Positions 5,561 through 55,175 of a stretch of DNA of 64,000 nt are shown here, in pieces (within the stretch, counting starts at the first letter, position 1; each line of letters begins with the position of its first letter). Origin of the DNA: Mytilus edulis. Its lineage: Eukaryota. The stretch spans positions 37,882,001 through 37,946,000 of the forward strand of contig NC_092354.1 in the NCBI RefSeq assembly GCF_963676685.1, given 5' to 3'. The translations under genes were made by a program, and so were the position numbers. The notes under the pieces are model-generated. The model ran no database searches, was not told the origin of the DNA, and saw only the letters and a list, made by a program, of their open reading frames with translations.

Positions 5561-6463
5561 TCACGACATGGTCGTTAATTAATAGGCAGCTACTCTCAAA
5601 ATGAAGACAAAGTGATCATTTTCTAGGCTTTAAATTAGGAAGGAACAGAAACGTTTCAAATGCACAAAGATTATGTAAACAATGACAAATTTCATTTCTT
5701 TTTGCATTGTAACATTAACATATCATTGCGTTCTAATCTTTTTGCTTATCTAAAAGACTATACCATTATTTAAACATATTGATCCATTTAATAAACTTAA
5801 ACACATTCTAAGCCCCATCCCTGAACTTGTTTAACATATTGGGAGTCTTCATTAAGCAGTCTTTAGAAGTGAGGGAGTCGGAGAGTAGTTAAAGTTTGTA
5901 GTGGAAGAACATCATCTATAAAGCGGGAAGTAGAGTTAAAGGATATTACCAAATTCTTATTATTCTTCCTTAGAAGTCCCTAGAAGAAGTGACAATCCTT
6001 AACGTATTTGCCATAATCGTGTGAATATACCTTACATAACAATTATATTTTGCACGTCACATAGATTAAATTATAAATTTGTCGTTCATGGTATAAAGAG
6101 GTGCAATTATACACTTTCTTTTTTTATATATAATCCAACTTCTGTTTAGATAATATCACTTCTGTCATTCTTTGACCATCATCCCATCAGATGGCCTCTT
6201 TTGTATCAACCTATCTATTGTATTTATTGTGAACATGAAACCAGTCCAAGAAGATGCAAAGACAGGTCGACCACTATTAATTTTCATTAAATTTTGTTCA
6301 CAAGGTCAGCCTGCTAATAGTGTAGTGAATTGTGCACACAAGTACTGATCAGCTGATGTCCTCAATCTTTTATCCCGAAGGTTGACTTGGGAATTGAAGT
6401 ACGGGAACTCAAGTCCTTTCCAATTTATATTCGAATAATAAAATCAACGGTACCAATTTTGTT

Positions 6464-6507
6464 GCACCAGATGTGCATTTCGACAATACATGTCTCTTCA
6501 GTGATGC
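6464..6507 (-). ncRNA. Type I hammerhead ribozyme, copy 1 (one substitution in stem III)
   Basis: Minus strand GCAUCA-CUGAAGA-GACA(UGUAU)UGUC-GAAA-UGCACA-UC|UGGUGC. The palindrome AUGCGCAU is changed to AUGCACAU. Confidence 0.75.
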
Positions 6508-6813
6508 TCGTGGCCAAAATATTTGAAATCCAAAGCATATATAAAAGATGAAGAGCTATTATCCAAAAGGTCCAAAAAGTATAGCCAAATTCGTGAAAGG
6601 AATCAGAGCTTTGCATGAGGGAGATACATTCCTTAATTTATAATAATTTCTAATATTTTGTAACAGCAAATTTTAATAACACAAAAAATCCGTATTTTCA
6701 TGCCATTACCGAAGTACTGGCTACTGGGCTGGTGATACCCTCGGGGACTAATAGTCCACCAGCAGAGGCATCGACCCAGTGGTAGTAATAAAATCAACGG
6801 TACCAATTTTGTT

Positions 6814-6857
6814 GCACCAGATGCGCATTTCGACAATACATGTCTCTTCAGTGATGC
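6814..6857 (-). ncRNA. Type I hammerhead ribozyme, copy 2
   Basis: Minus strand: stem I GCAUCA/UGGUGC, core CUGAAGA, stem II GACA/UGUC, GAAA, short palindromic stem III AUGCGCAU, UC cleavage site. Confidence 0.85.
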
Positions 6858-7164
6858 TCGTGGCCAAAATATTTGAAATCCAAAGCATATATAAAAGATG
6901 AAGAGCTATTATCCAAAAGGTCCAAAAAGTATAGCCAAATTCGTGAAAGGAATCAGAGCTTTGCATGAAGGAGATACATTCCTTAATTTATAATAATTTC
7001 TAATATTTTGTAACAGCAAATTTTAATAACACAAAAAAATCCGTATTTTCATGCCATTACCGAAGTACTGGCTACTGGGCTGGTGATACCCTTGGGGACT
7101 AATAGTCCACCAGCAGAGGCATCGACCCAGTGGTAGTAATAAAATCAACGGTACCAATTTTGTT

Positions 7165-7208
7165 GCACCAGATGCGCATTTCGACAATACATGTCTCTTC
7201 AGTGATGC
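7165..7208 (-). ncRNA. Type I hammerhead ribozyme, copy 3
   Basis: Identical to copy 2. Confidence 0.85.
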
Positions 7209-7514
7209 TCGTGGCCAAAATATTTGAAATCCAAAGCATATATAAAAGATGAAGAGCTATTATCCAAAAGGTCCAAAAAGTATAGCCAAATTCGTGAAAG
7301 GAATCAGAGCTTTGCATGAGGGAGATACATTCCTTAATTTATAATAATTTCTAATATTTTGTGACAGCAAATTTTAATAACACAAAAAATCCGTATTTTC
7401 ATGCCATTACCGAAGTACTGGCTACTGGGCTGGTGATACCCTCGGGGACTAATAGTCCACCAGCAGAGGCATCGACCCAGTGGTAGTAATAAAATCAACG
7501 GTACCAATTTTGTT

Positions 7515-7558
7515 GCACCAGATGCGCATTTCGACAATACATGTCTCTTCAGTGATGC
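7515..7558 (-). ncRNA. Type I hammerhead ribozyme, copy 4
   Basis: Identical to copy 2. Predicted cleavage between 7521 and 7520. Confidence 0.85.
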
Positions 7559-7596
7559 TCGTGGCCAAAATATTTGAAATCCAAAGCATATATAAA

Positions 7597-10500
7597 TAAA
7601 GGCAACAGTAGTATACCGCTGTTCAAAACTCATAAATCCATGGACAAAAAACAAAATCGGGATAACAAACTAAAACCGAGGGAAACGCATTAAATATAAG
7701 AGGAGAACAACGACATAACACTAAAATGTAACACACATAGACAAAATACCACGAGAATAACAAATATAACATATATATATAACATCAAAACCAAATACAT
7801 GAATTTGGGATAGACAAGTACCGTGACACGTCTTATCGCAATGTGAATTTACACTCAAAAATAAGAGAAAACAAACGACACAACGTTATAATGTAATACA
7901 CACAGAAACGAACTATAAAATAACAATGACCATATTCCTGACTTGGTACAGGACATTTTTAAAGGAAAAAATGGTGGGTTGAACCTGGTTTTGTGGCATG
8001 CCAAACCTCGCACTTTTATGGCCATATGAAATATAACATCAAAATGACAACACAGGACTACAATATAAATAAATTGGAGAACACAATTGACAAAGAATCA
8101 CACGAACAACAGCCAACAAAAGGCAACAAGTTCAAAATTTTTATACGCCAGAAGTGTATTTTGTCCACACAAGACCTATGTGTGACGCACAGATACAAAA
8201 GTTTGAAAGCCGAAACGAGTACAAAGTTGAACAGCATCGAGGACCAAAAGATCAAAAAGGTAGTGCCAAAAACGGCAAGGGTTTTCTGTTAAGTTACCAG
8301 AAAATCCCTATAATTTAGAGTAATTTATACTTTTGCAAACAGTAAATTTAATAAAATGAATATACAAAAGATGTACATGATAAAGCTGAAGTATTAACTA
8401 ATTACAGGAAACAACTGAAATACATTTACATAACCAGACATTTGAAACACAAAAGTAGACACATCCGAATACGTTTAAACCTCTACGCCAAGTGACGTCC
8501 TATTTGAAACTGAAAAATGACGAAAAAATGACGTCATTTGAATTAGTAAAACAGAGCATCAAAAAACGAAAAATTACGTCACATAAGAATGAATAAGATA
8601 GAATTAGGATTAATATAAGATTATATATTTGAACTAAATACTGATATTGCATTTAATAACAAAGCACATTTTAATTCTTATTAATATAAAACTGAGGTAG
8701 CAATTAACTATATTATAAAACTATGTCAGGTTTGTTATGAATCTAACTTCAAACGTAAAATATCGTACTGATTACTTTGAACGAAATCAAATCTGATAAA
8801 TGAAGGCGGTGATTAATTTTCTTTACCATAACACATAAATATAATAGAAAAGACGTCAACATATTTGACAAAATCCGATGAGAATTACAAATATAACATT
8901 AAACATTTAAACTAAATACATGAATTTGGGATGGATAAGTACCGTACCACGTCTTATAGTAATGGGAGTTCACACTCGGCAAAACAGTCACAATCGGTAA
9001 TAAGTCACGTTTGGAAATTAAAAGATTAGACGACATTATGACAAAACACAATCTACCATGTGGTAAAAATGTCCTTAGCTAGTTTGGTCAACGAAACATC
9101 GTATGGATCCACCAAATCGTGATGGTGTCCATAAAATTTACGGAGTGTCAATTTTAATCTGTCCTCCTCATAACTTTGTTGGAGCAGTTTCTGCGTAAGG
9201 AGCACACTCCTGTATATGAAGTCCGTATAGTGTGAACAAGCACGAGAATAACGTATCAATTGTGATATGTAAACACCATACGAAGGGGCAGAGGGTATGT
9301 TACTGCTGAGAAATGGGAAATTGATATTTGGGAAGTTAAAATCGTCCCGTTTATCATAGATTTTCGTGTGAAGTCGTCCATCTACGTCAATATTGAGGAA
9401 AAGATCAAGGTATGAAGCAGTCCTTATAGTATCAGTGGTATCCTTAATTTCAAGTTCACTTGGATATATGAGATGTAAGTATTGGCTGAAATATGGGTTA
9501 TTCAATGACAGAACATCATCAATATATCGGAAAGTAAAATTAAAGAATTTCGCAAGGTGCTTTTTCTTTTTGTCTTTTAGAAGGTTCTGAATGAATTCTG
9601 TTTCATACGAGTACAAAAACAAATCAGCCAGCAGGGGTGCACAATTAGTACCCATTGGAATACCGACTGTCTGTTGAAATATAAATCCTCCAAACTCAAC
9701 AAATATATTGTCGATCAAAAAGTCCAGCATTTTGATATCATCTTCTGTATATTTTCTGGGAGATTCAGTGTGATTTTTCACAAAATATGAATTATTGTAA
9801 CCCAAAACAAGAAATTTGTATCTTCGATTTCCATTTTTATAGAAAAAGCTCTGTTTTATGAGATGGTGTAGTCGATCTTTCAACTGAGCATGGGGAATAG
9901 TAGTATATAGCGTAGAAAAATCAAAAGTTTTTATGTTGCTGCAAAATTGCAAAGATTGTGATTGAAGGTTAAGCAGTAGATCTTTCGAATTTTTGAGAAT
10001 CCACATCTGGTTAACACCACTGGTAGAATATATCTCCTCACAATATTTTTGAAGCCCATCTTTAACTGTCGAAAGAATAGTAGTCAGTACTTTAGAAAGA
10101 TGTTTGGTTGAACATTTTGAAGACCCAGCTATGTATCGTTCTTTATATGGAGTTTTGTGTAATTTGGGTATCCAGTATAATGAAGGCAAGTTTTCTTCGT
10201 TTTCTTTGATGTTGATACCAAAAGAAAGAAGGACAGATTTATGATTTTGTAAAATTTCGTCCTTGGTAAATGATGTTAAAGAATATGTAGGATTACCAGT
10301 AGTTTTATCAATTCCAAGCTCTGTAGTAAGACATTGCAAATAATGTTTTTTACATATGAAGACAATATTATTGGAGGCTTTATCTGCTGGAACAACGACA
10401 TATTTGTCATGCAAAGAGGATAAAGCATCCACAACCTCCGGATTCTTGAAAGGGTTAGAAACTTTAGTACTCATATTACATCGTAGTTTTTGTATGCGCC

Positions 10501-10813
10501 TCTGAATGCATGATCGAATAGCTTTGATCCATTCAGACAAAGTGTCCAGTTCTGGTTCGTCTGGTTCGCGCTTTACCCATTTTCTTGCATAGTCCTCAAC
10601 TGCATCCATCAGTAACTTGAAATTCTTTTTCCAGTTGATGGGCTGGGGGATTCTATATTTTGGTCCCTTGGCTAACAACTCTCTTAGTTGTTCATTGGTA
10701 ACGATGCCAAGGTCTCCAGTAATAATATGACCAGCTGGACTGTAATTGTATTGTGACGATGCACATGAGCAATCCGGAGGCTTGGATTTTGTATCTTTGA
10801 GGTTAAAAGCATG
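7597..10813 (-). mobile_element. 5'-truncated Penelope-like retroelement (Naiad-type) inserted in the retrozyme array
   Basis: RT ORF plus ~1.45 kb of 3' region ending ..GAACAGCGGTATACTACTGTTGCCTTTA. The array unit CCAAAGCATATATAAAAGATGAAGAG is split exactly around it. The same 3' end occurs alone at ~14219-14314 and ~29005-29312. Confidence 0.85.
9053..10813 (-). CDS. Penelope-like (Naiad-type) reverse transcriptase, N-terminally truncated, no GIY-YIG domain present
   Basis: Open frame of ~586 codons with PADKASNN, LYWIPKLHK, FDFSTLYTTIPH (A), GIPMGTNCAPLLADLFL (B'), FRYIDD (C) and YGVYISQLIRYSRAC thumb. N-terminal CxC..GHIITG linker. The ORF-track start at 10846 is a TTG inside the repeat unit. 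Confidence 0.92.
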   Translation of the reverse strand, partial: HAFNLKDTKSKPPDCSCASSQYNYSPAGHIITGDLGIVTNEQLRELLAKGPKYRIPQPINWKKNFKLLMDAVEDYARKWVKREPDEPELDTLSEWIKAIRSCIQRRIQKLRCNMSTKVSNPFKNPEVVDALSSLHDKYVVVPADKASNNIVFICKKHYLQCLTTELGIDKTTGNPTYSLTSFTKDEILQNHKSVLLSFGINIKENEENLPSLYWIPKLHKTPYKERYIAGSSKCSTKHLSKVLTTILSTVKDGLQKYCEEIYSTSGVNQMWILKNSKDLLLNLQSQSLQFCSNIKTFDFSTLYTTIPHAQLKDRLHHLIKQSFFYKNGNRRYKFLVLGYNNSYFVKNHTESPRKYTEDDIKMLDFLIDNIFVEFGGFIFQQTVGIPMGTNCAPLLADLFLYSYETEFIQNLLKDKKKKHLAKFFNFTFRYIDDVLSLNNPYFSQYLHLIYPSELEIKDTTDTIRTASYLDLFLNIDVDGRLHTKIYDKRDDFNFPNINFPFLSSNIPSAPSYGVYISQLIRYSRACSHYTDFIYRSVLLTQKLLQQSYEEDRLKLTLRKFYGHHHDLVDPYDVSLTKLAKDIFTTW

Positions 10814-11189
10814 AAAAGATGAAGAGCTATTATCCAAAAGGTCCAAAAAGTATAGCCAAATTCGTGAAAGGAATCAGAGCTTTGCATGAGGGAGATACAT
10901 TCCTTAATTTATAATAATTTCTAATATTTTGTAACAGCAAATTTTAATAACACAAAAATTCCGTATTTTCATGCCATTACCGAAGTACTGGCTACTGGGC
11001 TGGTGATGCCCTCGGGACTAATAGTCCACCAGCAGAGGCATCGACCCAGTGGTAGTAATAAAATCAACGGTACCAATTTTGTTGCACCAGATGCGCATTT
11101 CGACAATACATGTCTCTTCAGTGATGCTCGTGGCCAAAATATTTGAAATCCAAAGCATATATAAAAGATGAAGAGCTATTATCCAAAAG
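10814..11189 (-). repeat. Retrozyme-like tandem array (right part)
   Basis: Continues the unit from AAAAGATGAAGAG for slightly more than one unit. Confidence 0.9.
11084..11127 (-). ncRNA. Type I hammerhead ribozyme, copy 5 (upstream of RT)
   Basis: Identical core to copy 2. Predicted cleavage between 11090 and 11089. Confidence 0.85.
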
Positions 11190-53580: not shown

Positions 53581-53864
53581 AAAATGAAATGAAAACTCTT
53601 AATATAAAGACACTTCAAAAGTTTCATGTGTTATCTTATCGTAAAACTAGTCCTGTCAAATATAAAAAAAAGTATATTAAGGTTGATTTCAAACTTTAAA
53701 TAACGATAATATGTTTTCTTCCGGATTTTAATTTTTAATGTTGTTATACTTATTTGTAATCTTAGCAATTAAATTTATGTTCAGAACAATCATCATCTTA
53801 TTATAATTAGTATATTAAAAAAAAATGAATTGCAAAGGAGTGATGTTTTGTTTTATTTGTTGAG

Positions 53865-53906
53865 CGCCACTGATGAGTCCTATTTAGACGAAACGCACAT
53901 CTGGCG
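53865..53906 (+). ncRNA. Solo type I hammerhead ribozyme motif (stem III mismatched)
   Basis: CGCCA-CUGAUGA-GUC(CUAUUUA)GAC-GAAA-CGCACA-UC|UGGCG. Confidence 0.7.
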
Positions 53907-54529
53907 TACCAAATTATAAGCCTGTTACCTTTACTGTATATATTCAGTAATATGATTTCAAAGCTTTCACTTTCTTCAAATGTCGTCTGAAATGGAGTGG
54001 CAACTTTATCCAAACAATTTTGAATTAGGAAAGTCTGTATATGTGCAAGCAAAGAAAAACAATACGAAAATGAACAGTAAAATATATAAACACAATATGT
54101 TACATCTGAAAAATATTGCACAGACTCTATAGATAACTATAGTAAATCACACGAGACGTTAAACCGCATGGTTCTATTACCATAGTTAAACACCCTAAAC
54201 GTCCCAAAAATCCAATGTTTTTAAAAGATTAGATGAAGACTAAACAACTAGCAGAATGGTTGGTCGTACTGAGGTTATCATTAGACTGGCAGGTGATTTT
54301 ATTATTAATGTAATATCCCAAAGGCTGCTTGTCACTGTTTAGACCAAATTAATATCTCTTTCGTATATATTCAAACAATTGTCGGAAAATTATTTTTGTA
54401 TTCCGAGGTTTTATCCTATCAAATATAAGACTTTCTGTCCGATTACCGACCTCAATAATCACAACTGTAAACATAAGTTACCCTTTGGGAAAGAGCAGTC
54501 ATATTGACAAGTTGAAATCTAAATACAAA

Positions 54530-55175
54530 ATTAAACATTCAACATTCAACAATCGTTTTCAATATGCAACATTCGTTATCAACATTATGATTTCCACTTT
54601 CAACAATCGTTTTCAACATTCTACATTCAAAATCCGTTTTTTACATTCCATATTTAATTTTCAACATTCGTTTTAAACATTCAACAATCGTTTTCAACTT
54701 TCAACATTGGTTTTCAACATTCAACATTCGTTTTCTTCATTCGATTTTCACAACATTCAACATTTGTTATTAACTTTTATCATTCGTATTCAACATTCAG
54801 CATTCTTTTTCAACATGACATTTTCGTGTTCAACCTGAAATATTCGTATTCAACATCCAGCATTCATTTTCAACATGAAATATTCGTTTTCAACACGAAA
54901 TATTCGTTTTCAACATGAAATATTCGTTTTCAACATGAAATATTCGTTTTCAACATGATATATTCGTTTTCAACATGAAATATGAAATATTCGTTTCCAA
55001 CGTTCAACATTCGAATGCACTATTCAACATTCAATTTTTATATTTTTTGTTCTAACCTTTTTTTCAACTTCTGAATATTCATCTTTCGTTTTCAACATTG
55101 TGATTTCATATTTCAACATAAATTTTCGACATTCAACATTCATGTTTTACTTTTAAAATACGTTTTTAACATTCG
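54530..55175. repeat. TTTTCAACA-based minisatellite including a 20-bp array
   Basis: TATTCGTTTTCAACATGAAA-like unit about 7 times at 54841-54990, within a degenerate (TTCAACA)n tract. Confidence 0.85.

Follow-up and report, generated by a model that had tools for sequence, protein, structure and literature searches.

The locus considered here raises the question of why the units of a mussel retrozyme array should carry, besides the hammerhead ribozyme, a second structured RNA element, and what this element might do. The window, a stretch of 64,000 nucleotides of the Mytilus edulis genome (contig NC_092354.1, positions 37,882,001 to 37,946,000, renumbered from 1 in what follows), holds the array on its minus strand in two parts, 3.3 units of 350 bp at 6436-7596 (the 3′ part) and about 1.1 units at 10814-11189 (the 5′ part), which are separated by the insertion of a Naiad retrotransposon. 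A 350-bp period and five hammerhead cores place it among the non-LTR retrozymes, in which tandem units of 150-450 bp each contain a type I hammerhead. The hammerhead at 6814-6857, whose core was read from the sequence, has its cut site at 6820/6819; the other copies occupy 6464-6507, 7165-7208, 7515-7558 and 11084-11127. This organization is very similar to that of the Mytilus galloprovincialis retrozymes, for which self-cleavage and abundant circular RNA have been reported and which consist of tandem units of 350-390 bp with a type I hammerhead, Penelope-like elements (PLEs) being proposed as helpers (Cervera and de la Pena 2020, PMC7229834). In contrast to what is described below, the accessible text of that paper mentions neither a second conserved motif nor a fixed insertion end nor a helper clade; in its supplementary figures the hairpin could be shown as part of a predicted circle fold.

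The array has close relatives that are transcribed: 2,220 reads of one RNA run fall on it and, since most are only 90-99% alike, they represent sister copies. In run X24 about 100 reads per side share the hammerhead core alone (6815-6856 and 7516-7557) and then continue into one other sequence, which could belong to another hammerhead-bearing RNA or to a host transcript. Elsewhere the window contains a solo fragment of a family-B hammerhead (53860-53935, plus strand), which also stops before the hairpin, as well as a 146-bp satellite-like repeat and a 20-bp minisatellite at 4-518 and 54521-54983.

The first-pass annotation had described the second element as a predicted pseudoknot in four minus-strand copies. 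Both the sequence and the copies are present, the starts given there lying in each case 7 nt before those bounded by the helices, and the element so delimited is a hairpin of 58 bases. Copy 1 (6723-6780) is composed of P1 (7 bp), a 1×4 internal loop, P2 (6 bp), a near-invariant bulged core (CUGCUGGUGGA/UCCCCGAG) and P3 (5 bp), which carries a variable loop; these are the outer, middle and inner helices drawn earlier, retained with changes of register. Copy 2 (7074-7131) has one G>A in the core, copy 3 lies at 7424-7481, and copy 4 (10994-11050) shows one T>C, turning a G-U pair of P2 into G-C, and lacks one C. Within the 350-bp unit every copy is found 39 nt 3′ of a type I hammerhead cut; as delimited before, with a proposed distance of about 30 nt from the cleavage site, the motif begins 33 nt from the cut. 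The window motif folds with a z of −2.76 (1 of 200 shuffles was equally stable), and its core pattern finds 7,927 matches genome-wide compared with 0 for the reversed pattern, diverged genomic copies having been sought by sequence patterns alone. The hammerhead pattern finds 20,234 matches against these 7,927, a ratio that is only rough because the two patterns differ.

The fold was examined in the retrozymes A, B, C2 and D1 and in the Naiad families Naiad1 and Naiad3, plus Naiad2, which has an inserted hairpin. The six representatives without the insert share one rod fold, with the same P1 of 7 bp, 1×4 loop, P2 of 6 bp, core and P3 of 5 bp, and give folding z values between −2.4 and −3.9. All three helices covary across 8 family representatives: 99.5% of the cells are paired and 7 pairs are changed on both sides, a result matched by 0 of 500 shuffles, while slid structures gave 0-2 pairs. 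These counts exclude Naiad2, whose insert was misplaced in the nine-row and the model-fitted alignments, and it should be kept in mind that 5 of the 7 two-sided changes come from the Naiad1 lineage alone and that the shuffle control ignores relatedness. The core pairs are invariant across the 8 rows and hence give no covariation signal. In 13 non-coral Naiad consensus sequences inspected by eye, at least 6 of 7 P1 pairs and at least 5 of 6 P2 pairs are kept in all 13, with many letter differences. When whole circles are folded, P1-P3 form with probabilities of 0.64-1.0; most of the stretch that precedes the hairpin stays unpaired in family B, and part of it in family A. In Naiad2 (L254:1585-1674) a 10-bp hairpin is inserted between P2 and the core, and a similar insert occurs in three other published Naiad starts besides the Mytilus matches of Naiad2 (Skow1 and Mphi by eye), so that the P2/core junction appears to be a tolerant insertion point. 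The motif is a real, conserved rod-like RNA hairpin, probably without a pseudoknot.

The knot originally drawn would pair CUGGU with ACCAG and could be a relic of an HDV-like ribozyme, a block to exonucleases or an alternative conformation of the hairpin. Its five pairs are 95% kept in the 8 rows from the genome, with G-C changed to G-U at two pairs in 3 of 8 rows, and by eye it is complete in 1 of the 13 outside Naiad sequences and has 4 of 5 pairs in 4 of them. However, the knot helix has no two-sided changes, one-sided changes at two positions and is broken in 2 of 8 rows. Among the outside sequences (n=13) the mean is 3.0 of 5 pairs and 8 have at most three; four oyster and pearl-oyster sequences retain 2 of 5 although CUGGU itself stays fixed. 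The last base of the knot is already taken by P1, and as drawn the knot strand would adjoin the 3′ strand of P2 with 0 nt in between; the linker on the opposite side would measure 1-2 nt. From general pseudoknot geometry such linkers are too short to cross an 8-bp helix, and those of the drawn knot are likely too short as well. A value of zero for the knot helix in the circular fold excludes a nested alternative only, as this fold cannot represent pseudoknots.

HDV-like ribozymes possess a conserved P2 pseudoknot, P1.1, P4 and a catalytic cytosine in J4/2. The hairpin does allow a GGA/UCC stem with a 7-nt loop to be drawn, and the order of the helices is similar on paper, but the helix that would make the knot is unconserved, and the resemblance in helix order suggested earlier is most likely wrong. 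That P4 and the J4/2 cytosine are absent had been recognized; P1.1 is missing too, and no sequence remains between P2′ and the 4-nt linker. As for an exonuclease block, XRN1 requires a 5′ monophosphate, which neither circles nor hammerhead products have, and the class of exoribonuclease-resistant RNAs depends on a knot ring to stall XRN1, the knot being unsupported here. Taken in any of its three forms, the pseudoknot thus appears very unlikely.

On which strand the hairpin acts is indicated by one-sided G-U changes at four pairs, which favour the minus strand, as do the polarity of the hammerhead and the sense of the Naiad ORF. The change from G-U to G-C in copy 4, put forward before as an argument for this strand, does exist; being a single substitution in a single copy it counts for less than these other data. 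Folding energy was dropped as a strand criterion, since the plus strand folds lower than the minus strand (−31.9 vs −27.7 kcal/mol). The orientation of X24 reads, whose first mates fall on the plus strand about 3:1 over the array, was likewise discarded because the same bias is seen at the Naiad on the opposite sense. The comparison to Rfam suggested at the outset gave 0 hits in the window at the gathering score, where Rfam also misses the hammerhead, and at E≤10 a single chance-level hit (snR34, E 7.1). The original description of a structured element without a name on the hammerhead strand is borne out.

The insertion that splits the array is a 5′-truncated Naiad retrotransposon (7597-10810, minus strand), integrated at TTTT^ATATAT with no visible duplication and with 3 extra bases at the 5′ junction. 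It is 98.75% identical to a full-length copy, its ORF remnant ends at 9053, and its 3′ end also lies just before the expected start of its own hairpin. The ORF at 9053-10873 is a member of a young Naiad family with intact 1007-aa frames. The protein matches the GIY-YIG domain (PF01541) at residues 138-226 (E 1.4e-4, 22.5 bits vs a cut-off of 22.6) and, C-terminal to it, RVT_1 at 711-856 (E 0.013); its translation carries the CxC and GxKY motifs and DKA in place of DKG. The window scan found no canonical hammerhead core within 7597-10810. A retrozyme-B-like piece with a decayed hammerhead is present at 8130-8420 (minus strand) within the Naiad1 3′ UTR (72% over 247 nt); it is fixed, ends near the usual retrozyme end and was probably captured. 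The Naiad clade of PLEs was defined by Craig et al. 2021 (PMC8557442), and the elements described there agree in the N-terminal GIY-YIG domain, CxC, DKA, the lack of a canonical hammerhead and partial tandems; the hairpin is present among their consensus sequences. By contrast, in the accessible portion of that paper no 5′ RNA structure is described, the word pseudoknot appears once, for a frameshift, and retrozymes are tied to PLEs in general terms only.

In the M. edulis genome three Naiad families that are apparently free of hammerheads, Naiad1, Naiad2 and Naiad3, begin their 5′ UTR with the hairpin. Tandem copies of Naiad1 have the homologous hairpin directly before the ATG, with compensatory changes, and Naiad3 is the closest to the retrozyme hairpin (78.5% to retrozyme A over unit 1-93, E 3e-16). 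One Naiad family in the genome resembles the published Mytilus consensus starts. Of 54 published Naiad consensus sequences, all surveyed over about their first 140 nt, 16 have the core at or near the start (14 by the exact word, 2 by eye), the carriers being bivalves, hemichordates, a toadfish and three near-identical corals. The other 38 starts show no clear motif (two are weak look-alikes), so the hairpin is not universal to Naiads. Run X24 has no read over the Naiad1 hairpin. Retrozyme family D (L258-L260, L226, L245) has a different hammerhead and an AUUA linker, and a word which we take to resemble the tRNA A-box overlaps its P1′ strand. Outside the genome, a viral scan returned 2 hits of 14-16 bits without P2, judged to be chance, and a metagenome scan 4 hits, namely 3 mussel-type retrozymes and an unrelated coding stretch (L091, discarded). 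A degenerate retrozyme of the same layout occurs in a deep-sea-mussel symbiont assembly and is probably host DNA; similarly, contigs filed as bacterial (L326-L332) contain retrozymes and pieces of Naiad ORF (41-70% identity) and are probably animal DNA.

Physical proximity says little about a partnership of the two element types. Retrozymes are not enriched beside Naiad DNA, with counts of 20/165 vs 18/156 at a distance of 600 nt on the 5′ side and, in the same comparison, 19/158 vs 12/150 on the 3′ side; as the window Naiad is a nested insertion and the flanks are unenriched, adjacency is no evidence for it. A Naiad-retrozyme chimera made by template switching was considered for the window and rejected for the same lack of Naiad enrichment in the flanks and because the Naiad splits the array cleanly.

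The hairpin has a fixed position relative to insertion 3′ ends, here counted backwards from its first base, in loci that were best or first hits rather than a random draw. Among distinct terminal hammerhead copies of families A-C, 101 of 113 end at −9 to −1 (37/37 in A, 41/49 in B and 23/27 in C), 11 end earlier and 1 inside the hairpin; 65 further distinct strings are internal copies. At the level of arrays, 125 of 159 3′ ends fall in −10 to 0, bin 0 being partly a query-edge effect, and 167 5′ ends are scattered over the unit. Family D, despite its different hammerhead, behaves alike (10/13 at −8 to −5), as do Naiad1 (19/21 at −8 to −3), Naiad2 (21/24 at −8 to −1, with a query that favoured longer ends) and Naiad3 (30/30 at −8 to −4). 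In addition, 371 RNA reads depart from the Naiad1 sequence at −8 to −5 and continue into mixed flanks. The ends cover a range of about 6 nt and are made less sharp by chance matches to the AT-rich targets; the offset is constant although the upstream sequences of retrozymes and Naiads are unrelated except for a U-rich run. At copy 1 the equivalent of this end zone is the U-rich stretch 6781-6789 (minus strand), immediately 5′ of the hairpin, and the window array itself stops at 6436, that is at −5 relative to the expected next hairpin. Judging from this position, the zone would be where reverse transcription starts.

The hammerhead cut, on the other hand, is no hot spot for 3′ or 5′ ends, which points to an uncut multimer or a circle as the template. 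Of the 5′ ends, 21/94 fall in the first 16 nt of the hairpin (binomial p 3e-4, one internal deletion dropped), in a sample chosen for an intact core; this modest excess would be consistent with copying that stops after about one full turn or stalls at the helix, and is a hint at most. At another locus (L212, G000:C2:95560000-95566000) an array of 11 units of 279 bp is made of a Naiad 3′ end, the hairpin and the first ~150 nt of the ORF. No hammerhead core was found on either strand of this array, which ends 2 nt before the hairpin, and such arrays therefore need no hammerhead. At L051, the 3′ end of a retrozyme adjoins an inverted copy that carries the hairpin, an inverted structure of the Penelope type.

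Because retrozymes and Naiad 5′ UTRs have the hairpin in common and the insertions of both element types end just before it, we think it likely that it is a docking and internal-initiation signal for the Naiad reverse transcriptase (RT), carried by the retrozymes in order to be copied. Of the functions guessed at in the first-pass annotation, a recognition or priming site for a Penelope-like RT is favoured on these same grounds. The link is positional, and the fixed 3′ ends would be explained equally well by a cut about 5 nt upstream of the hairpin, after which the RT would begin in the ordinary way at the RNA 3′ end so created. The hairpin would then act as a self-cleaving ribozyme or direct a host nuclease, and would replace the hammerhead that Naiads lack, a proposal which agrees with the invariance of its bulged core and with the absence of canonical hammerheads from Naiads (as far as described in PMC8557442). 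However, an upstream cut should leave 5′ ends there, and few are found at −10 to −1 (5/95 for retrozymes, 0/19 for Naiads). Moreover, 212 RNA reads extend from the motif across the end site, with no end pile-up listed there, although fragmented RNA-seq shows ends poorly. The full mussel monomer was purified and about 30% of it ligated to circles, which dominate in vivo (PMC7229834, in the part accessible). Rfam gives no ribozyme match at E≤10, a weak argument given that it misses the hammerhead as well. Cleavage at this site appears improbable to us, and the earlier guesses of a second ribozyme and an exonuclease block find no support in 5′ ends without pile-up, reads across the site and a monomer that can be ligated into circles.

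The hairpin might also serve the Naiads in transcription or translation, as an internal promoter or in the control of the start codon, and have merely been inherited by the retrozymes, the U-rich run alone setting the end. Its location directly before the Naiad ATG would suit such a function, and a U-rich run precedes the hairpin in every family. This is nonetheless unlikely, as non-coding retrozymes keep the hairpin pairing in four families and many other U-rich runs in the units are unused as ends. The compensatory changes point to a role at the RNA rather than the DNA level.

If the hairpin is the docking signal of the Naiad RT, the protein would bind its invariant bulged core and nick AT-rich DNA, and cDNA synthesis would be primed within the RNA, at the U-rich run that adjoins the hairpin on its 5′ side, and would proceed away from the hairpin. 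A retrozyme would amount to this hairpin plus a hammerhead; the latter makes circles, as published for mussel retrozymes, on which the enzyme could go round, producing arrays of tandem units in which the 3′ end is fixed and the 5′ ends are random. A wider proposal, which we make only tentatively, is that the 58 nt form a portable module, kept within a single Naiad branch that reaches from corals to hemichordates and fish, that could suffice for internal priming by a telomerase-related RT on any RNA and that becomes a rolling-circle retroelement when a hammerhead is added. Telomerase RNA has a template with a pseudoknot on its 3′ side. It would resemble the hairpin in that a structure 3′ of the copied region is used by a related RT; it differs in that the hairpin is not a pseudoknot and that long processive copying contrasts with a short reused template.

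A closer parallel comes from the Poseidon element PAc, whose RT in vitro starts internally at +111-118 and needs RNA up to +172 (Frangieh et al. 2024, PMC11167929). There too reverse transcription begins internally and 3′ of a hammerhead, RNA extending about 55-60 nt beyond the start is needed, and genomic ends match the starts. Unlike the hairpin described here, PAc belongs to another clade and initiates at two sites in an AC-rich stem-loop that is part of the ORF; the accessible text gives no conserved binding structure, and the supplements contain no matching text. A vertebrate-centred study (Li, Clavereau, Pollet 2026, bioRxiv 10.64898/2026.07.22.740005) similarly likens retrozymes to the terminal regions of PLEs, whose enzymes they would use; it differs in dealing with hammerhead-bearing pLTRs, and the part of it at hand does not mention pseudoknot, initiation, secondary structure, Mytilus or mussel. 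Retrozymes, Naiads, internal initiation and a general retrozyme-PLE link are thus already published. That a retrotransposon protein recognizes an RNA structure is a known kind of interaction; the hairpin family, the fixed insertion end and the Naiad-retrozyme partnership were not found in the literature searched, partly accessible as it was, and supplements may bear on their novelty.

The enzyme that mobilizes animal retrozymes, and the RNA feature which tells a Penelope-like RT where to start, become testable with these data. With a hairpin that is short and conserved, and a start zone that is mapped, exact mutants can be designed for the in vitro system of another Penelope-like element. The proposed role of the hairpin accounts for the shape of the insertions, with one fixed end, one random end and tandem copies, and would provide an RT closely related to that of telomerase with a minimal RNA partner. 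Should the portable module hold true, Penelope-like RTs would have their first defined cis signal, which could provide a small tag for writing RNA into genomes, and Naiads would be the helpers of mussel retrozymes.
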